Positions 7,709 through 35,231 of a stretch of 64,000 nucleotides of DNA are shown here, one piece after another. Source of the DNA: a bacterium. GTDB lineage: Bacteria > UBA8248. Both the position numbers and the translations under genes were made by a program. Location of the stretch: the NCBI GenBank assembly GCA_965261085.1, contig OZ253442.1:3776001-3840000 (forward strand), given 5' to 3'. Position 1 is the first letter of the stretch. Each line of letters begins with the position of its first letter. Below the pieces are notes generated by a model. The model saw only the letters and a list, made by a program, of their open reading frames with translations. It was not told the origin of the DNA and did no database searches.

Positions 7709-8051
7709 TCACTCGCACACGACACCGTCGCCGTCGCGGTCGGCCAGATCAGCCACGGTCGCTTCGAGCTTGGGCTCCGTCTCGACAGGCGTCAGACCAG
7801 CCTTGATGCATGCGATGAGCTTGGCGGCGTCCTTACGGGCTTGATCGGGTGCCACATCCCTGTGCCAGCCGACGGTGACGCGCTTCGACTTGCCGTTCGC
7901 CCGGACCTGCACCACATAGACCTTGAGCCCGCTGGGGTACACACGAAGACCGAAGCCGGAAGCTCGCTATTCCAAAAAACGCGTCCTTGCCGTCGACGGA
8001 GAGGCGGTCCACGATACGCTTGGAGAGCGTTCGGTACTGGCGTTCGGGCAT
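7709..8051 (-). pseudogene. N-terminal (arm-DNA-binding) fragment of a tyrosine integrase, frameshifted and truncated
   Basis: MPERQYRTLSKRIVDRLSV... then in another frame VYPSGLKVYVVQVR...QARKDAAKLIACIKAG. Paralogous to the N-termini of 35473-36570 and 36567-37748. Confidence 0.85.
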
Positions 8052-8119
8052 GTCCTCGTTCCTGCGATAGGGGTCGTCATGCCGGAGCGCGGATTGAGGG
8101 CCTCGATGTGGTGAATTCT

Positions 8120-8270
8120 CGCGTAAGCAATCCAAAAGCAACCGGCTGAAATTCGAGGTGCATTGAAGCGCATCGGAGGCGAGAATGCAAGGGGCAGAGT
8201 GGGCCGTGAAATTTTGGAATATAAATTATTTACAACAACTTATATCGGATGAGCCCAGGTCAGCGCATGC
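8120..8270 (-). promoter_or_regulatory. Integrase-proximal element end with sigma70-like promoter
   Basis: Minus strand TTGCAT-N17-TTCAAT (8190-8162). Homologous to 37795-37950 (GTAA.CAAT, CATT.AAGCG, AATGCAAGGGG, AT-rich IHF-like tract). Confidence 0.55.
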
Positions 8271-8439
8271 CAGCGCAGGTCGCGCCGCTCGGCGGTCTCG
8301 CGCGCCAGCGTCCCGCCGAGCGTCAGCCAGCCGGCTGAGCGGGATGGAATCGACGGTTGGTTCAGGATGGGTTATAGGTACCTCCTCTAGTGGATTGGAT
8401 GGGAAAGCTCTAAATCCCTCTCTGGTCTTCCCGGGTTCG

Positions 8440-8665
8440 CTCCGAGCCCGCCCGCTCCCTCACACCCCCAGTAGTAGTGGAGGCTCAACGAGCGGGTCCT
8501 TTCCGTTTTGGCCGGGGAACACACGGGGGTCATCCGGCTAGCGGGGAACCTCCTCCAACACCCTGAGCACGGGTGCCGTCAGCGAAACTATGCAAGTGGC
8601 CGCCTTGGCGTCTTAGAGTCTCAACTCGCCCGCCCTACGGTCCACGTCGTCCCAGCGTATTCGGT
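8440..8665 (-). pseudogene. Decayed catalytic-domain fragment of a tyrosine integrase
   Basis: Manual translation RWDDVDRRAGELRL*DAKAA..VSLTAPVLRVLEEVPR*PDD...HYYW..RERAGL matches RWDDVDRTAGELRLRDAKAGPRMVPLTAPVKRVLEEVPRSPDN...YYW..RERAGL of 36567-37748. Not in the ORF track. Confidence 0.8.
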
Positions 8666-8799
8666 TTGCGCCGATGCTTTCCTAATCCCCATCACTCCAC
8701 GAACGAACCTTTGCCGTAAGCGATGGGATGGACGCGCCCTCCCGAAGGCATCACACTGTGGTGAGGTGGTGTCGTTACCGCCCTGCAGGAGGGGAATCC

Positions 8800-9825
8800 A
8801 TGGAACAGGTTCACATCATCGGCATCGATCTGGCAAAACAGAGCTTTCAACTCCACGGCACGCGCCCGGACGGATCGGTCGCGTTCCGGAAGAAGCTTAC
8901 CAGGGCGAAGGTGTTGGGCTTTCTGGCTTCGCAGCCGCGGTGCCTGGTGGCGATGGAGGCATGTGCGAGCGCGCACTACTGGGGGCGTGAGATCGGCAAG
9001 CTCGGCCATGAGGTGAAGCTTATCCCGCCGATCTACGTGAAACCCTTCGTCAAGCGCCACAAGAACGACGAGGCTGATGCGGAGGCGATCTGCGAGTCGG
9101 CCTCTCGCCCGACCATGCACTTCGTGGCCGTGAAGACTGAAGAGCAGCAGGCCCGAGGGATGCTGTTCCGCACGCGCGATTTGCTGGTGCGACAGCGCAC
9201 CCAGACGATCAACGCGCTGCGCGGCCATCTGGCGGAGTTCGGCGTCGTTGCTCCCCAGGGTCCCGCCCATGTCGCGCGGCTGGCGTCGGCCGTTGCAGAT
9301 CCGGGCTTGGGCCTGCCCGAGGCGGTCCGCGATCTGGGCGGGGTTCTGCTCGATCAGATCGCCGGCCTCAATGCGAAGATCGGGGAGTTGGAGAGGCAAC
9401 TTCTCGCGAGTGCGCGCCAAGACGAGGAGGCGAGGCGCCTGATGAGCATACCGGGGATCGGGGCGATCGGGGCGATGGCGATCCAGGCCTTCGCGCCGCC
9501 GATGGAAAGCTTCCGGCGCGGTCGCGACTTCTCCGCCTGGCTCGGGCTCGTCCCGCGGCAGCACTCCACCGGTGGCAAGCCCCGGCTGGGCAGGATATCG
9601 AAGATGGGCCAGCGCGACGTCAGGCGGTTGTTGATCATAGGCGCGATGACGGTGGTGCGCTGGGCGGTCCGGCGCGGCGCTCCGCCGGGCTCATGGCTGG
9701 CCCGGATGCTGGCGCGAAAGCCGCGTATGCTGGTCGCGGTGGCGCTGGCCAACAGGATGGCGCGCATCGCCTGGGCGCTGATGACGAAAAAAGAGGTCTA
9801 CAAGGAGCCGGTGCCGGCCGCCTGA
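8800..9825 (+). CDS. IS110-family DEDD recombinase/transposase
   Basis: IGIDLAK, AMEAC, KNDEADA, GLVPRQHSTGGK. RBS GGAGGGG before the ATG at 8800. Confidence 0.95.
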   Translation: MEQVHIIGIDLAKQSFQLHGTRPDGSVAFRKKLTRAKVLGFLASQPRCLVAMEACASAHYWGREIGKLGHEVKLIPPIYVKPFVKRHKNDEADAEAICESASRPTMHFVAVKTEEQQARGMLFRTRDLLVRQRTQTINALRGHLAEFGVVAPQGPAHVARLASAVADPGLGLPEAVRDLGGVLLDQIAGLNAKIGELERQLLASARQDEEARRLMSIPGIGAIGAMAIQAFAPPMESFRRGRDFSAWLGLVPRQHSTGGKPRLGRISKMGQRDVRRLLIIGAMTVVRWAVRRGAPPGSWLARMLARKPRMLVAVALANRMARIAWALMTKKEVYKEPVPAA

Positions 9826-9894
9826 GCGGCAGGCGAGCGGATAATGCCGGGAATGTGAGCAGGTCGGAGGACAGGTAAGGGGCATACGGTCAAT

Positions 9895-10045
9895 GAGACG
9901 GGATCGGGAAAACCAGGACCTGAATGGAGAGCTTTCAAGCTCGCGTAAGCGATTCGGACCCGATCCGCGCATCTCCATACGGGCCCGTGGCAAGAGGGAA
10001 ACGCCGCAATCTAGAGGCCGAATACACGACTGCGCCTGACCACAT
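9895..10045 (+). ncRNA. Predicted bridge/seek RNA of the IS1111-type element (boundaries approximate)
   Basis: Stem GGATCGGG/CCCGATCC with inner hairpin GAGC-TTTCAA-GCTC. The loop strands match the insertion target (9917-9925, 9945-9957); downstream segments match the donor junction (9970-9978, 10022-10027). Confidence 0.75.
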
Positions 10046-10201
10046 TGCGCCGAACTGTCCGAAGAAAAAGCTTGCATTTTGGGGCGCGTCCATACACATT
10101 CGGTCGAGGGGTGATGGTGTCCGCGTAGCTCATTCCGGATAATCGAAGAGATTCCCGTAAGGTGCTGGTAACATCTTCCGGCATGTGGTAATCATGTCGG
10201 C

Positions 10202-12520
10202 ATGAAGATTTGCACGGAAGCTGTCGAGACGGAGCCGGCGTTGGTCGAGAGGCCGGATGAGCCATGGCCTCATCCCCCCGAGTTGTTCACAACCGGAGAG
10301 GCGTACTGGCGTTCGCTGTACGAGCGCGAGCGTGCGCGCGCGGAGGCGGCGGAAGCGCGCTGCGAGGAGTTGCGGTGGAAGGAGGTGGATACGCGCACGC
10401 GGGCGGGTTCGCTGAAGTGGTATCTCGACAACTGCCGGAGGAAGCTTGCCGCGAGCGTCGGGAAGTTGAAGGAAGTCCGCCGCGCGGCGAAGAAGGACAT
10501 CCTGGCGCTCGAGGCGGAAGTGGCTCGACAGGAGAAGCTTCTTCGCAAAGCCGGTGTCGAGCCGGGCAAGCGCAGCCCGCTCGCGTCGCTGCGCAAAGAG
10601 GTGGCCCGGTTGCGCAAGGCTCTCTCGGGCGCGTTGCCTCCGGGGGAGGCCGCGCGGCTGCGCAGAGTCGTGGAGAAGCGGGAGAATACGATCGAGTCTC
10701 TGCGCAAGGAGATTGAGGGGCGGGAGGAGGCGCTCGCCCGGCTGAAGAATCGGCTGGCCTGGGAGAAGCTGGAGACGAAGTCTCAGAAGAAGACGGTCCA
10801 GTGGCGTGACGAGGAGGTCATCCGGCTCTGCGGGAAGTTGCGGGAATTGCGTGACGATTTGCGGGTCTCCCTCAGGGCCGCGGACGTCGCGAAGGAACGG
10901 CTGAAGGAGCGGTTGTTGCGCGCGAAGGAGGCGTTGCGCTCGAGGTCGCCGTCTCGTTCGGACGCGGAACTTCGCAAGGCCCTGGGGAGGTCGCGGCGTC
11001 AGAAGACGGCGCTCAGGTCCCTCTCCAGGGAGAACGGGCGGTTGTGCCGTGCGCTTCGCAAGTCGGAGACCCACAGGGCGCGGCTGGAGGCCGAGCTCGC
11101 GAAGCTTCGCGCCACCGGAGCGGTGCTGGCGAGAAGGCTGTTCGGGCGCGGGAGCGAACGACAGGAGAGGCCACGCTCGGAGCGCAGGCGCGGCGGGCAG
11201 CCCGGCGCCCAAGGCCATGGCCGCACCCCGCGGCCCGCGCTCGGGGAGAGGACCGAAGTTCGCAACCCGCCGGCCAGCGCGCGCGTCTGCGCCGGTTGCG
11301 GGCAGCCCTACGTGGCGAACGGCGCACGCATGTCGAGCATCGTCGAGATCGAAGTCTCGGCCTACAGGCGGGTCATACGCCGTCCGAGGTGGCGCCGGGT
11401 GTGCGCGTGCGCGTCGTCTCCCATGGAAGTGTCGGCGCCGCCTGCGCCGCGCCTGTTTGCGGGCACGTCTTACGGGACGAGCGTCTGGGCGCGCCTGCTG
11501 TTCGAGCGCTACGCCTGCTTCCGCCCACTCAACCGGGTCGCCGCGTGGCTCTCCGACCAGGGACTTCCGGTCTCCGCGGGCACGCTGGGCGACAGCACAC
11601 ACCGCTTCACGCCGCTGTTCGAGCCGCTGGCCCGGGCGATCCTCGCCCGCCAGAACGAGGCGGCGGTGCGCCATGGGGACGAGACGACGTGGCGCGTACA
11701 GTCGCTTCGCGAGCAAGGACGCTCGAGCCGCGCCTGGCTGTGGGCCTCGGTAAGCACAGACTCCGTCTACTTCCACGTCGACCCCTCGAGGAGCGCCGAT
11801 GTCGCGATGAAGCTGTTCGGCGCGGCCGGCCCCCATACAGTCATCGTCTGCGACCGCTACAGCGCCTACAAGAAGCTGGCGCGCGAACTCGACGGCGCCG
11901 TGAGTCTTGGCTTCTGCTGGAGCCACGTTCGGCGCGATTATATCCACTGCGCCGCCGGCGATGCGCGGCTGACGTCGTGGTGTGAGAGATGGATCGGGCG
12001 GATTGCGCTGCTCTACCGCCTGAACGAGGCGCGCCTGGCCCGTTACGACTCAGGCTTCGAACGCCAGGACGCGGCGTTCGAAGCGGCGCAGGCCGCGCTC
12101 AAGAAGGCGCTCGATAGCCTGTTCGCGCAGGCCCGACGGGAACTGTCGGCCCTGCCGGCGCAGGTGCGCGAGGGCAAGGCGCTTCGCTCACTGCTGAACC
12201 ACCGCGAAGGGCTGAGCGTCTTCGTCGAGCGCCCCTCGGTGCCAATGGATAATAACGCCGTCGAGCGCGCGCTTAGGGGACCGGTGATCGGGAGGCGGCT
12301 CTCGTTCGGCTCCGTGAGTGAGGCCGGCGCCAGGTTCTCGGCGATGATGTACTCGGTCCTCGGCACCCTCGCGTCGAACGGCATCGACCCGCTCCGCTGG
12401 CTGGAGGCATGGCTCACGGCCTGCGCGGAGAACGGCGACCGGGCGCCCGGGGACCTCTCCGCGTGGCTGCCCTGGTCGATGAATGAGGAGCGCAGGCGCG
12501 CCCTCATGGCGCCGGGATGA
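10202..12520 (+). CDS. IS66-family transposase (TnpC-like) with a long N-terminal coiled coil
   Basis: LFGRGSER, Zn-finger CAGCG...CAC, HGDETTW, VCDRYSAY, CWSHVRR, DNNAVERALR. Confidence 0.92.
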   Translation: MKICTEAVETEPALVERPDEPWPHPPELFTTGEAYWRSLYERERARAEAAEARCEELRWKEVDTRTRAGSLKWYLDNCRRKLAASVGKLKEVRRAAKKDILALEAEVARQEKLLRKAGVEPGKRSPLASLRKEVARLRKALSGALPPGEAARLRRVVEKRENTIESLRKEIEGREEALARLKNRLAWEKLETKSQKKTVQWRDEEVIRLCGKLRELRDDLRVSLRAADVAKERLKERLLRAKEALRSRSPSRSDAELRKALGRSRRQKTALRSLSRENGRLCRALRKSETHRARLEAELAKLRATGAVLARRLFGRGSERQERPRSERRRGGQPGAQGHGRTPRPALGERTEVRNPPASARVCAGCGQPYVANGARMSSIVEIEVSAYRRVIRRPRWRRVCACASSPMEVSAPPAPRLFAGTSYGTSVWARLLFERYACFRPLNRVAAWLSDQGLPVSAGTLGDSTHRFTPLFEPLARAILARQNEAAVRHGDETTWRVQSLREQGRSSRAWLWASVSTDSVYFHVDPSRSADVAMKLFGAAGPHTVIVCDRYSAYKKLARELDGAVSLGFCWSHVRRDYIHCAAGDARLTSWCERWIGRIALLYRLNEARLARYDSGFERQDAAFEAAQAALKKALDSLFAQARRELSALPAQVREGKALRSLLNHREGLSVFVERPSVPMDNNAVERALRGPVIGRRLSFGSVSEAGARFSAMMYSVLGTLASNGIDPLRWLEAWLTACAENGDRAPGDLSAWLPWSMNEERRRALMAPG

Positions 12521-12524
12521 CGCC

Positions 12525-13397
12525 GTGACCGAGTGCCGCTACTACGGGCGCGACTTCACGACGGAAGAGATGGCGCTGCTGCGCGCGCTGATCGCAGGCT
12601 CTCCTGCGCTCAACCGCCATGCGCTCTCGAAGGAGTTCTGCCGCCGCATCGGCTGGTACAAGCCCGACGGCGGACTCAAGGACATGATGGCACGGGTGAC
12701 CATGCTCGCCATGGACAAGGACGGCCTGATCACGCTCCCCCCGCCGATGCGGCCACGCCACGCGGCTCGGCCAATCGTCTTCGGACCCGACACCGAAGCG
12801 CCTCTCATCCCGTCGCCGACCACCCTCGATGAGGTCCGCCCCATCGGGATGCGCATCGTCGTGCGCGGAACCCGCGAGGGCCAGCTCTGGAACGAGTTCG
12901 TCGCCCGCTACCACTACCTCGGTTACAAGACCCTCGTCGGCGCACAGATGCGCTACGCCGTCCACGACCGCGACGGCAGGCCCCTCGCCATGCTCGGCTT
13001 CTCCACCGCCGCGTGGAAGCTCGCCCCGCGCGACAGCTTCATCGGCTGGACGCCCAAGCTGCGTGAGAAGAACCTCCCCTTCGTGGTCGACAACCCGAGG
13101 TTCCTCATCCTGCCATGGATCAAAATCCCCAACCTCGGCTCGCACCTCCTCGCCATCATCCGCAGGCGCCTGCCCGGGGACTGGACCGAACGCTATGGCG
13201 TCACCCCCGTGCTCGTCGAGACCTTCGTCGAAACGCCCCGCTACACCGGAGCCGTCTACAGGGCATCGGGATGGATTCCCGTTGGAACCACCCAGGGACG
13301 AGGGCGCTACGACAGGGACAGACGCTACGACAAGCCCAAAAAGGACGTCTGGCTAAGGCCGCTCCGCAGCAACTGGAAGCAAGTCCTCAGCCGCTGA
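12525..13397 (+). CDS. DUF4338 (DruA-like) domain protein carried inside the IS66
   Basis: RYHYLGY..LVGAQMRY, AAWKLAPRDSFIGW, RFLILPW..IPNLGSH, VETFVE, YRASGW..VGTTQGRGR. Likely GTG start at 12525. Confidence 0.8.
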   Translation: MTECRYYGRDFTTEEMALLRALIAGSPALNRHALSKEFCRRIGWYKPDGGLKDMMARVTMLAMDKDGLITLPPPMRPRHAARPIVFGPDTEAPLIPSPTTLDEVRPIGMRIVVRGTREGQLWNEFVARYHYLGYKTLVGAQMRYAVHDRDGRPLAMLGFSTAAWKLAPRDSFIGWTPKLREKNLPFVVDNPRFLILPWIKIPNLGSHLLAIIRRRLPGDWTERYGVTPVLVETFVETPRYTGAVYRASGWIPVGTTQGRGRYDRDRRYDKPKKDVWLRPLRSNWKQVLSR

Positions 13398-13477
13398 AAC
13401 AAACCCCATCACCCCTCGACCGAATGTGTATGGACGCGCCCCAAAATGCAAGCTTTTTCTTCGGACAGTTCGGCGCA

Positions 13478-13628
13478 ATGTGGTCAGGCGCAGTCGTGTA
13501 TTCGGCCTCTAGATTGCGGCGTTTCCCTCTTGCCACGGGCCCGTATGGAGATGCGCGGATCGGGTCCGAATCGCTTACGCGAGCTTGAAAGCTCTCCATT
13601 CAGGTCCTGGTTTTCCCGATCCCGTCTC
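13478..13628 (-). ncRNA. Predicted bridge/seek RNA, copy 2 (boundaries approximate)
   Basis: Reverse complement of 9895-10045. Confidence 0.75.
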
Positions 13629-13697
13629 ATTGACCGTATGCCCCTTACCTGTCCTCCGACCTGCTCACATTCCCGGCATTATCCGCTCGCCTGCCGC

Positions 13698-14723
13698 TCA
13701 GGCGGCCGGCACCGGCTCCTTGTAGACCTCTTTTTTCGTCATCAGCGCCCAGGCGATGCGCGCCATCCTGTTGGCCAGCGCCACCGCGACCAGCATACGC
13801 GGCTTTCGCGCCAGCATCCGGGCCAGCCATGAGCCCGGCGGAGCGCCGCGCCGGACCGCCCAGCGCACCACCGTCATCGCGCCTATGATCAACAACCGCC
13901 TGACGTCGCGCTGGCCCATCTTCGATATCCTGCCCAGCCGGGGCTTGCCACCGGTGGAGTGCTGCCGCGGGACGAGCCCGAGCCAGGCGGAGAAGTCGCG
14001 ACCGCGCCGGAAGCTTTCCATCGGCGGCGCGAAGGCCTGGATCGCCATCGCCCCGATCGCCCCGATCCCCGGTATGCTCATCAGGCGCCTCGCCTCCTCG
14101 TCTTGGCGCGCACTCGCGAGAAGTTGCCTCTCCAACTCCCCGATCTTCGCATTGAGGCCGGCGATCTGATCGAGCAGAACCCCGCCCAGATCGCGGACCG
14201 CCTCGGGCAGGCCCAAGCCCGGATCTGCAACGGCCGACGCCAGCCGCGCGACATGGGCGGGACCCTGGGGAGCAACGACGCCGAACTCCGCCAGATGGCC
14301 GCGCAGCGCGTTGATCGTCTGGGTGCGCTGTCGCACCAGCAAATCGCGCGTGCGGAACAGCATCCCTCGGGCCTGCTGCTCTTCAGTCTTCACGGCCACG
14401 AAGTGCATGGTCGGGCGAGAGGCCGACTCGCAGATCGCCTCCGCATCAGCCTCGTCGTTCTTGTGGCGCTTGACGAAGGGTTTCACGTAGATCGGCGGGA
14501 TAAGCTTCACCTCATGGCCGAGCTTGCCGATCTCACGCCCCCAGTAGTGCGCGCTCGCACATGCCTCCATCGCCACCAGGCACCGCGGCTGCGAAGCCAG
14601 AAAGCCCAACACCTTCGCCCTGGTAAGCTTCTTCCGGAACGCGACCGATCCGTCCGGGCGCGTGCCGTGGAGTTGAAAGCTCTGTTTTGCCAGATCGATG
14701 CCGATGATGTGAACCTGTTCCAT
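13698..14723 (-). CDS. IS110-family recombinase/transposase, copy 2
   Basis: Identical translation to 8800-9825. Confidence 0.95.
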   Translation of the reverse strand: MEQVHIIGIDLAKQSFQLHGTRPDGSVAFRKKLTRAKVLGFLASQPRCLVAMEACASAHYWGREIGKLGHEVKLIPPIYVKPFVKRHKNDEADAEAICESASRPTMHFVAVKTEEQQARGMLFRTRDLLVRQRTQTINALRGHLAEFGVVAPQGPAHVARLASAVADPGLGLPEAVRDLGGVLLDQIAGLNAKIGELERQLLASARQDEEARRLMSIPGIGAIGAMAIQAFAPPMESFRRGRDFSAWLGLVPRQHSTGGKPRLGRISKMGQRDVRRLLIIGAMTVVRWAVRRGAPPGSWLARMLARKPRMLVAVALANRMARIAWALMTKKEVYKEPVPAA

Positions 14724-14855
14724 GGATTCCCCTCCTGCAGGGCGGTAACGACACCACCTCACCACAGTGTGATGCCTTCGGGAGGGCGCGTCCATCCCAT
14801 CGCTTACCCTTTGCCCGACGTAAACGCGCGCCTATGCGCTGGAGTTGTAATTCAT

Positions 14856-14991
14856 CCGCTTGCGTTTTGATTACATCCTGCGGAAGCTAGATTCCGAACA
14901 AGAGCGGGGATATTTAATATTTTCAAATGATATCAATGGGATAGCAGGATTCCACACCCGTTGGAAATACCCTAGTATCTATAAACGGGCG
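14856..14991 (+). repeat. att-like site A (GATTAC motif, IHF-like box, imperfect palindromic core)
   Basis: CCGCTTGCGTTTTGATTAC...TATCAATGGGATA...CACCCGTT-N21-AACGGGCG; colinear with 21337-21471, 35098-35231 and 35435-35571. Confidence 0.65.
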
Positions 14992-15235
14992 AAATATGAA
15001 ATTTGCGGATATTTATTTCGGTCCGAAACAAAGCTTCATTCCCCGCAACCCCTTGTCCGGAAGGGATTCGTCCGGGAGGCGGATGCGGTTTTCTCTTTCA
15101 TGGGTCCCTGCCTTCCGGGAAGAGCGACGCCCATCTCCCCCAAGGTAGCCATCGACAGGGGAGGGATGTTATCTGGAAACAGACGCCGTCCCGTGAACGG
15201 CGTTGCGGGTCCTGCACGGGCCGCCCGCATGCGCC

Positions 15236-15372
15236 TTACATACACATCCATCTCTGCCGGCGGCTCGTAGAACGTGAAATCCTCCGCATCGAGGTCCGTG
15301 ACATCGACGTTCTCCAGCCGGATCGTGCCGCCGCCCTCCGCGCTCAAGTCGATGACGGCGTCGTCGACAGCA
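15236..15372 (-). pseudogene. C-terminal fragment of an RTX/calcium-binding secreted protein
   Basis: DDAVIDLSAEGGGTIRLENVDVTDLDAEDFTF is typical of RTX-protein C-termini; no credible start. Confidence 0.65.
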
Positions 15373-15438
15373 TGTGAGGCGCACGCGGCGAAGAATCCAG
15401 ACAATCTTGAATCCTGAACCAAGGGAAGGAGAAATGCC

Positions 15439-15570
15439 ATGGCGAATATTACGGGCGGCGCGGACGACGATACGCTCGAAGGCGGCGATGGCATCGACTT
15501 TCTCTATGGCGGCGAGGTCGACGACACGCTCACGGGCGGGGCAGACGCGGGCATTTCCAGACGAGAATGA
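15439..15570 (+). pseudogene. N-terminal fragment of an RTX (GGxGxD) protein
   Basis: RBS AAGGAG then MANITGGADDDTLEGGDGIDFLYGGEVDDTLTGGAD...*; 43 aa, below the ORF-track cutoff. Confidence 0.7.
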
Positions 15571-21150: not shown

Positions 21151-21471
21151 CGGCCGCAGGCGAGGGGAGGAGACATGAGATGTCGAAACCCCCAAGCCGC
21201 AGGAACGCGGCGCTCCGGGAGGCGATGGCGAAAGGCGAAACAGGACGGAGGCGCGGTTGCGTAGTGCGGGTGGAAGGGGAGACGGGATGGTTCCGGCGAC
21301 TCGGACCCGCCGGGATGCGCGGGAGTTTGAATTCGCCCGCTTTCGTTTTGATTACATATTGCGGAAGGCGGATTCCGGATGAAGTTAGTAAAAATAGATA
21401 TTTACAATTATATCAATAAGATAATGGAATTTCTTCGCCGATAAAAACACTCATCCGCATCTAAGCGGGCG
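21151..21471 (+). repeat. ~320-bp direct repeat, copy 1, ending in att-like site B (21337-21471)
   Basis: Near-identical to 34911-35231; identity stops right after CTAAGCGGGCG. Confidence 0.9.
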
Positions 21472-34910: not shown

Positions 34911-35231
34911 GCGGCCACAGGCGAGGGGAGGAGACATGAGATGTCGAAACCCCCCAAACCGTAGGAACACGGCGCTACGGTGGCGATGGCGAAAGGCGAA
35001 ACAGGACGGAGGCGCGGTTGCGTAGTGCGGGTGGTAGGGGAGACGGGATGGTTCCGGCGACTCGGACCCGCCGGGATGCGCGGGAGTTTGAATTCGCCCG
35101 CTTTCGTTTTGATTGCATATTGCGGAAGGCGGATTCCGGATGAAGTTAGTAAAATAGGTATTTACGATTATATCAATAAGGTAATGGAATTTCTTCGCCG
35201 ATAAAAACACTCATCCGCCTCTAAGCGGGCG
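34911..35231 (+). repeat. ~320-bp direct repeat, copy 2, ending in att-like site C (35098-35231)
   Basis: Near-identical to 21151-21471. Confidence 0.9.

Follow-up and report, generated by a model that had tools for sequence, protein, structure and literature searches.

A probably RNA-guided IS1111-family element in both terminal repeats of an IS66-family element

It is known from IS4321 and IS5075 that an insertion sequence can make the ends of another transposon its target; these are IS1111-family elements that lie at a fixed position and in a fixed orientation, without target duplication, in Tn21-type terminal repeats, and the inference that the invaded end is thereby disabled has been drawn for them. 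The seekRNA/bridge-RNA mechanism of target choice in the wider IS110 family is known as well, bridge-RNA targeting having been shown experimentally for IS621. Experimental proof of RNA-guided targeting also exists for other IS1111 members, in which the RNA is called seekRNA (sections of Siddiquee et al. 2024, PMC11187229). Here we describe a related arrangement in a 64,000-nucleotide stretch (the window; contig OZ253442.1, positions 3,776,001 to 3,840,000) of a genome that consists of one 4.27-Mb contig. A composite of 6,092 bp (window 8716-14807), bracketed by an 8-bp direct duplication, is made up of a 3,340-bp IS66-family element and, in each of its 26-bp terminal repeats, one 1,376-bp IS1111-family element. 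The whole is best explained, and we hold this to be highly probable, by an RNA-guided IS1111-family element that inserted independently into both IS66 terminal repeats.

The window element resembles IS4321/IS5075 in its fixed position and orientation within another transposon's terminal repeat, in the lack of a duplication, and in its subterminal 12-bp repeats, here ATGGACGCGCCC (8728-8739) with GGGCGCGTCCAT (10082-10093); beyond these repeats IS4321 and IS5075 extend 7 or 6 bp on the left and 3 or 4 bp on the right, and the extensions here are 7 bp (CGATGGG) and 3 bp (ACA). It differs from them in its target, which is an IS66-family repeat entered behind the family-typical GTAAG, 5 bp inside the tip, rather than a Tn21-type repeat, in its uncultured alphaproteobacterial host, in the occupation of both ends of one element by identical copies, and in its transposase, which has at most about 70% DNA identity to any plasmid-borne relative found. 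By analogy, it is best described as a close functional analogue of IS4321/IS5075 and not as a member of the IS4321 lineage.

The IS621 bridge RNA, in those parts of its description that we compared, is similar to what we read here in having two loops, one that reads the target and one that reads the joined ends of the element, and in recombination at a short shared core. In IS621, on the other hand, the RNA comes from a region upstream of the gene, the two guides stand in the opposite order and recombination uses a dinucleotide core, whereas only one shared base (C) is readable from the junctions in the window. ISEc11, ISPa11, ISKpn4 and ISPst6, as treated in parts of PMC11187229, have a non-coding region downstream of the gene with two short target matches in the same order as here, and natural reprogramming is seen among their close relatives; their targets are a short linear site, REP sequences or attC, whereas the target here is a transposon end and the RNA is predicted. 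A donor guide that spells the circle junction is read here and is absent from the sections of PMC11187229 compared. A full-text literature search, with ISfinder and the supplementary target logos of PMC11187229 outside its scope, returned no paper linking IS1111 or IS110 elements to IS66 ends, and the main text of PMC11187229 makes no mention of IS66; the supplementary logos, which cover more than 300 insertion sequences, may already include a GTAAG-type target.

The original prediction, made from the letters of the window, described two identical IS1111-type copies in inverted orientation at the two ends of an IS66 element, with the 8-bp duplication of the latter intact outside them, and both statements hold. 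A repeat search found one pair of inverted arms (8716-10120 and 13403-14807; 1405 nt each, 100% complementary, with a spacing of 3282 nt), each arm encodes an IS110-family transposase, and CCTTTGCC stands on either side of the composite. A contig from run X8, which belongs to a different study, links 8707 to 14808, skipping 6100 bases with 8 letters that fit both sides; given that this contig represents the unoccupied chromosomal site, the 6,092 bp as a whole count as a single insertion that duplicated 8 bp. Both outer junctions are crossed by contigs of runs X4-X6 (7800-8745, and 14778/14779-15637 or 15800), whose source sample may be that of the assembly, and depth in the X4 contigs, which is not a copy number, is about 10 in the flanks, 28-30 in IS66 and 38 in IS1111, loosely in line with the assembly.

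The open reading frame of each arm matched NF033542 ('IS110 family RNA-guided transposase', E = 7e-96, profile positions 1-342 of 343) over residues 30-356 of a mechanically called frame of 365 aa that begins at 8728; translation probably starts at the ATG at 8800, which follows AGGAGG and gives 341 aa. Matches to PF01548 (E = 2e-15) and PF02371 (E = 6e-22) identify a DEDD transposase that has a RuvC-like domain at its N terminus and the PF02371 domain at its C terminus, and the C-terminal motif GL-P----S/T-G, given as an IS1111 trait in a section of PMC11187229, is present as GLVPRQHSTG. Other traits of that family were also found, namely a transposase whose 341 aa lie within the usual 330-350 aa, subterminal repeats whose 12 bp fall in the family range of 11-13 bp and whose extensions are unequal (7 or 6 bp left and 3 bp right in the family), a long non-coding region behind the gene (271 nt), and the use of one target in one orientation without duplication (four of four copies). 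The family is further marked by a seekRNA from that region which co-purifies with the transposase and is required for movement, and by a circular intermediate whose ends abut; on these points the sequence offers guide matches and covariation. By every sequence feature tested, the small element is assigned to the IS1111 family.

The exact point of insertion had to be revised. The original prediction placed each copy at the AT at bases 8-9 of a 27-bp repeat (GTAAGCG-AT-TCGG) and gave it a length of 1375 bp, but intact ends read otherwise, and comparison with empty sites shifts the insertion by one base and the length to 1376 bp. The true terminal repeat is the 26-bp GTAAG^CATTCGGTCGAGGGGTGATGG, which IS1111 enters between G5 and C6. 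Ends free of an insertion read GTAAGCATTCGGTCG at two places in the genome (276201 and 3722726, the latter in full GTAAGCATTCGGTCGCGGGGTGATAG), and the twin of the second, at 2515389, is occupied. The repeat as first rebuilt, GTAAGCGATTCGG, was rejected in favour of GTAAGCATTCGG: no intact GTAAGCGATTCGG end was present in the genome at up to 5 mismatches, and a search of 23 genus genomes at up to 2 mismatches returned only GTAATCGATTCGG (G009, G017). Empty ends of the GTAAGCATTCGG type occur in four other genomes of the genus (twice each in G008 and G019, once in G013, and in G018 as GTAAGCATTCAG). Since all relatives, in the genus and beyond, start CGATGGG (or TGATGG) regardless of their flank, the extra G is part of IS1111; ambiguity is limited to the single C, and no base of the target, the AT included, is duplicated. 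These boundaries agree with the rule given for IS1111 in part of PMC11187229, by which 7 bp on the left and 3 bp on the right extend past the subterminal repeats without duplication, and they are fixed independently by the donor guide described below. Coordinates are collected in Table 1.

Table 1. Features of the composite and of the proposed guide-RNA region (window coordinates; a colon marks a junction and a caret an insertion point, here and in the text)
Feature	Position	Strand	Basis or remark
Target duplication, left copy (CCTTTGCC), made by IS66	8708..8715	.	Run X8 junction contig
Outer 5 bp (GTAAG) of left IS66 terminal repeat, severed by IS1111	8716..8720	+	Comparison with intact ends GTAAGCATTCGGTCG
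IS1111-family element, left copy, 1376 bp	8721..10096	+	Empty sites, 7/3 extension rule, donor-guide covariation
DEDD transposase gene, 341 aa	8800..9825	+	NF033542, PF01548, PF02371, GLVPRQHSTG
3' non-coding region, proposed seekRNA/bridge-RNA gene, 271 nt	9826..10096	+	Guide matches, covariation
Predicted closing stem of target loop	9900-9908 with 9959-9966	+	
Putative T guide	about 9917-9927	+	GACCTGAATGG, complement of C-ATTC-(A)-GGTC, between AACCAG and hairpin
Predicted hairpin	9929-9942	+	
Putative B guide	9945-9950	+	GTAAGC then GAT; equals top strand left of crossover
Putative donor guide	10022-10029	+	ATACA:CGA, right tip joined to left tip
Inner 21 bp of left IS66 terminal repeat (CATTCGGTCGAGGGGTGATGG)	10097..10117	+	Comparison with intact ends
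IS66-family transposase gene, 772 aa	10202..12520	+	PF03050, NF033517
DUF4338/DruA-like gene, 304 aa, second gene of IS66 element	12483..13397	+	PF14236, E = 1.3e-36
Inner 21 bp of right IS66 terminal repeat	13406..13426	-	Arm repeat
IS1111-family element, right copy, identical and inverted	13427..14802	-	100% identity to left copy
Transposase gene of right copy	13698-14723	-	
Non-coding region of right copy	13427-13697	-	
Outer 5 bp (GTAAG) of right IS66 terminal repeat	14803..14807	-	
Target duplication, right copy (CCTTTGCC)	14808..14815	.	Run X8 junction contig

The choice of target is strict within the genome. BLAST found four full copies of IS1111, 100% identical to one another, all with the same junctions, GTAAG:CGATGGG and CATACA:CATTCGGTCG, and with the left end facing the repeat tip; given that four of four share a site of at least 14 nt, its position and their orientation, chance is excluded. 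The original prediction had named a majority of copies in unrelated targets as one result that would refute it, and all four instead lie in an IS66-type repeat. Occupation follows the sequence of the end: four of the six ends that read GTAAGCATTCGGTCG are occupied, and none of the six with variant repeats (GTAACCGTTCGGCGG at two ends, GTAACCATTCGGTGG, GTAATCATTCAG, GTAATGGTTCAG and GTAAAAGTTCAG) nor any of the three occurrences of GTAAGCATTC outside repeats. The variant ends begin GTAACC, GTAATC, GTAATG or GTAAAA and depart from the targeted repeat at base 5 or within GGTC, and GTAAGCATTCGG is present in the genome in repeats only. Tabulated by IS66 copy, one is doubly and one singly occupied.

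The non-coding region that follows the transposase gene has, to judge from its sequence, the layout of a seekRNA or bridge RNA. The candidate T guide, complementary to the top strand, lies 5' of the B guide, complementary to the bottom strand, and the two overlap in the target. The same order and overlap are reported for IS1111 seekRNAs in sections of Siddiquee et al. (2024, PMC11187229). In a degenerate sister copy (genome 1872195) the T guide is the exact complement of CATTCGGTC. When 15 distinct non-coding regions from the genus were aligned, the scaffold was nearly invariant and the most variable columns fell into two windows, at about 9917-9927 and at 9945-9949, the latter just before the constant CGATTCGGACCCGATCC. 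In a matrix of guides against flanks for six by six element types, guides scored an average of 10.8 on their own flanks versus 4.6 on those of others. As for the putative donor guide, its 5-mer preceding CG (or TG) was the same as the 5-nt tip of the right end in all 14 distinct combinations, which were drawn from every locus collected and represent six different termini. The base after this 5-mer tracked the first base of the left end, so that L115/L116, with a left end beginning in T, have TG in the guide. The donor segment matches the donor-reading loop of a bridge RNA. An identity of 14 nt, CGTAAGCGATTCGG, was considered as one long guide and rejected, as GATTCGGACCCGATCC belongs to the scaffold that stays constant in relatives whose targets differ.

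That the IS110 element is programmed for IS66 terminal repeats, as originally proposed, is supported from both sides: its guide segments match the repeat, and the different guides of its relatives pair with different sites. Thus L007 has a T guide whose reverse complement is CGTTCA and the B guide TTCAT at the flank ..GGTTCAT^CGTTCAC; L006 has AATCTTGT (reverse complement) and ACTGT, with the flank C AAATCTTGT; and for T guides the reverse complements are CGGATACAC in L009 (flank C GGATACAC) and AAATCTG in L011 and L024 (flank C AAATCTG). Going by these correspondences, the relatives appear to be cases of natural reprogramming of guides. The T guide of L009 also matches the donor-guide segment GGCC:GGATACACGAATG of a sibling, so that L009 is, by its sequence, an apparent case of an element programmed against a relative's guide gene. 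Insertions of IS1111 relatives inside the guide-RNA region of a sibling IS1111 were seen in L009/L032 (G013), L052, L056, L067 and L080/L081/L083.

Relatives were found by a family-level search in 19 of 42 genomes, that is in G000, in 17 of 22 other genomes of the genus and in one genome of another genus. One of them, in G009, carries the guides GTAAC and CGTTCAGT and occupies the variant repeat that these guides match (..:GTTCAGTCGTGGGGTGATAG), in a related DUF4338-type IS66. Right-end/repeat junctions of another lineage were found in G019 and G021, and twice as remnants in the genome under study. A protein-guided scan of a genome collection gave 80 loci with 75-85% aa identity, all in metagenome-assembled genomes. 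These loci (L052-L131) carry the labels Alphaproteobacteria, Rhodospirillaceae, Binatia, Vicinamibacterales, Nitrospinota and Acidobacteria, which reflects either wide horizontal spread or errors of binning and labelling. The left end was located by pattern in 45 of the 80, the other 35 having a different subterminal repeat and being excluded from flank counts, and the left flank ended in TAAG or TAAC in 19 of these 45.

IS66 genes stood on the expected side in five of the 80 loci (L080, L081, L083, L108, L109), and L053 held an IS66 end on that side. In L108 and L109 the element lies at GTAAG^CGGGGCGAGC, and within 70 nt come a canonical tnpA (PF01527), tnpB (PF05717) and tnpC (PF13007/PF13005/PF03050); the L108 locus also holds two intact repeats, GTAAGCGGGGCGAGC and GTAAGCGGGACGAGC, that is GTAAGCGG(G/A)CGAGC. 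For L080, L081 and L083, whose metagenome-assembled genome bears the label Binatia, tnpA and tnpC of IS66 were found on the side of the right end, both possible orientations being represented. From these placements, the same position after GTAAG appears to be used in classical IS66 elements of unrelated hosts too. Plasmid relatives of the IS1111 element have at most 70% DNA identity and are not clearly in IS66 repeats; the element of plasmid L001 lies near IS66 tnpA/tnpB but not at a GTAAG repeat, and L051 has a GTAAC flank and guide and a broken right end. An 'ATAAC:CGATGGGATGGACGCGCC' junction class seen in four genomes was dropped, having only about 19 nt in common with the left end and not representing IS1111 insertions.

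Degenerate relatives are also present in the genome itself. An 826-bp copy with an internal deletion (1872195-1873028) sits at GTAAT^C and has intact IS66-type guides; others lie at 1443325-1444017, 1192341-1192623, 2514902-2515052 and 275806-276163, and include one that is 5'-truncated and has other guides and a left-end fragment beside the second IS66 copy. Two right-end remnants of another lineage abut ATTC(A/T)GTCGTCGGGTGAGATCG.

Several observations weigh against RNA-guided, independent insertion into IS66 repeats. The T guide of the active copies has an extra base, giving 5 contiguous pairs, a bulge and 4 more. Rfam gave no match for 8000-15500 at E values up to 1, nor at gathering scores for the window as a whole; folded as a single sequence, the non-coding region did no better than shuffles (z -1.29); and a compensatory change was present in only 4 of 49 predicted pairs, a scarcity due to the close relationship of the sequences. 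Two perfectly matching ends stand empty, and independent right-end hits in the two identical IS66 copies are assumed. Finally, a sister lineage (OZ253470.1 and relatives; L059, L062-L071, L074-L077, L079) with the guides GTAAC and CATCCGAAC lies mostly outside obvious IS66 repeats, at sites with little in common besides (G)GTAAC^CG(TTCG), and L012 has IS66-type guides yet sits at a poorly matching site, GGTATC^CGTTCATC.

The last two observations could be accommodated if all that the element recognised were a short and generic stretch, GTAAG/C^C and a few further bases, in which case IS66 would not be a specialised target and the double occupancy would be incidental. The roughly 17 located copies of the sister lineage, mostly at (G)GTAAC^CG.. 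sites with unrelated right flanks, fit such a motif, as do the placement of L012 and the mere 5 nt of contiguous match in the T guide of the window element. A generic motif does not, however, readily account for a genome in which all four copies are in IS66-type repeats, three other GTAAGCATTC sites are empty, GTAAGCATTCGG is confined to repeats and every variant at base 5 or in the GGTC stretch is free of insertions, nor for the frequency of TAAG or TAAC left flanks and the neighbouring IS66 genes and end among the loci of the scan. We consider this explanation unlikely.

Another possibility is that IS66 and its IS1111 passenger or passengers move as a composite, the right-end copies stemming from one insertion. 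Both identical IS66 copies are occupied at the right end and have different duplications (CCTTTGCC and CAAATTTT), and L108 and L109, two copies of one canonical IS66, are both occupied at the left end and have different outer flanks, as such movement would produce. Against it, only 5-6 bp of the 26-bp repeat are left at the tip, so that, going by the biology of DDE transposases, an almost unrelated end would have to be accepted; with four of six matching ends occupied, repeated independent hits are expected anyway; and a MITE-like element (genome 2515160-2516770) has been hit separately. Movement of the composite therefore seems to us improbable to a degree that leaves independent insertion clearly preferable. 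An assembly artefact of collapsed or mis-joined 1.4-kb repeats, for which one could cite the 100% identity of the arms and the fact that the evidence consists of short contigs breaking at repeats with no single piece spanning the whole stretch, is extremely improbable in view of the single 4.27-Mb contig, the X4-X6 contigs across both outer junctions, the precise unoccupied site, with a single duplication copy, in X8, and the same junctions at two other places in the genome.

The host of the insertions belongs to the IS66 family through its transposase (PF03050, E = 2.2e-56, and NF033517, E = 5e-83, in profile searches), of which residues 422-711 form the DDE domain and the N-terminal ~330 residues are without a family match. 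IS66-family elements make 8-bp target duplications and have terminal inverted repeats starting GTAAG, and here both the 8-bp duplications and perfect 26-bp repeats (GTAAGCATTCGGTCGAGGGGTGATGG) were found. The classical tnpA-tnpB-tnpC layout is absent, with no PF05717 or PF01527 match in the element, which is outside the classical three-gene group. Its second gene, which overlaps the end of the transposase gene, encodes a DUF4338 protein, a domain termed GNAT-like acetyltransferase in part of PMC10853773; in the DUF4338 literature located, as represented by titles and abstracts, none concerns IS66. Among 8000 candidates the protein had 6470 homologues at E values up to 0.001, mostly of 293 aa and about 80% identity, and one homologue is fused to an IS66 DDE domain (PF03050). 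Against plasmids, a DNA search with the IS66 part gave no match, and the DUF4338 protein matched two records, neither adjoining an IS66 gene.

This unusual two-gene IS66 type is present at window 10097-13426 and at genome 276201-279536 and 3699842-3703139. The second copy (276201-280916 with its insertion) is 100% identical, has an intact left end (GTAAGCATTCGGTCGAGGGGTGATGG) and an occupied right end, and is flanked by the duplication CAAATTTT; a 90%-identical IS66 copy has the variant GTAACCGTTCGGCGG at two ends. There is also a MITE-like, non-autonomous IS66 derivative of about 235 bp, at genome 2515160-2516770 and from 3722726, with the ends GTAAGCATTCGGTCGCGGGG and GTAACCATTCGGTGGCAGGG; only the GTAAGCATTCGGTCGCGGGG-type end is hit by IS1111, and in the copy at 2515160-2516770 the GTAAGC...GGTCG end is occupied and the GTAACC...GGTGG end empty.

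A repeat of about 160 nt lies next to the composite (window 14832-14994, - strand) and has 36 occurrences in the genome when up to 10 mismatches are allowed; it is also found at window 21313-21355 and 35074-35116, has a conserved 43-nt core, GTAATCAAAACGAAAGCGGATTCATTGAAACTTCTGCGCATCC, and had no Rfam match in the scan of the window. In at least 11 cases, those of the window and the second IS66 copy among them, an IS66-family end begins 15-27 nt downstream of the repeat, and given this repeated spacing IS66 elements seem, on sequence grounds, to prefer sites beside it. Other copies of the repeat precede unrelated genes, one lying upstream of a type IV coupling protein gene. On the other side of the composite, the left flank (window 8670-8700, gatgctttcctaatccccatcactccacg) is similar, in reverse complement, to the inner part of a different IS66-type repeat (genome 1192700 and 2515100), which suggests an older, nested IS66 end at the same site.

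Taken as independent RNA-guided insertion, the history of the locus would have begun with transposition of the IS66-family element into the site, producing the 8-bp duplication. An active IS1111 would then have entered each 26-bp repeat independently, between G5 and C6 of GTAAG^CATTCGGTCG, with its left end outward. RNA from 9826-10096 would be made and used for this: one internal loop would carry two guides, one that pairs with the top strand on the right of the crossover (C-ATTC(A)GGTC) and one with the same sequence as the top strand on its left (GTAAG-C), and the guide of the second loop would spell the abutted element ends ATACA:CGA. Recombination between the circular element and the target would take place at the single shared C, leaving no target duplication.

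The insertion splits the repeat 5 bp from its tip, and given that these outer 5 bp are parted from the remaining 21 bp by 1.4 kb, the end should be unusable to the IS66 transposase until IS1111 excises precisely. By comparison with IS4321/IS5075, the window IS66 copy, with both ends hit, is probably immobile. In principle, the two inverted 1.4-kb copies could also invert the inner 3.3 kb by homologous recombination.

It is possible, and we propose it tentatively, that the element belongs to a clade of RNA-guided IS1111 elements specialised on IS66, in which the B guide stays on GTAAG^C, the T guide follows the inner repeat, and sibling guide genes are attacked, amounting to an arms race. Three repeat variants with matching guides are at hand: CATTCGGTC here, CGTTCAGT in G009 and CGGGGC in L108.

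With this locus, IS66-family ends become one of the few known natural targets of RNA-guided IS1111 elements, in a fully readable example whose target guides, donor guide, element ends and empty sites are all concordant, and which is useful for the guide rules of IS1111, including a tolerated one-base bulge and a single-base core; its practical interest is modest because the mechanism is already known, as is, from IS4321/IS5075, the targeting of other transposons' ends. If the clade reading is true, IS66 repeats changed at base 5 or in the GGTC stretch would escape, and the result would be an RNA-programmed arms race of transposon against transposon, able to silence both ends of an IS66. Should the pattern hold, one mobile family would track, and probably disable, another, which would bear on the control of insertion-sequence load.

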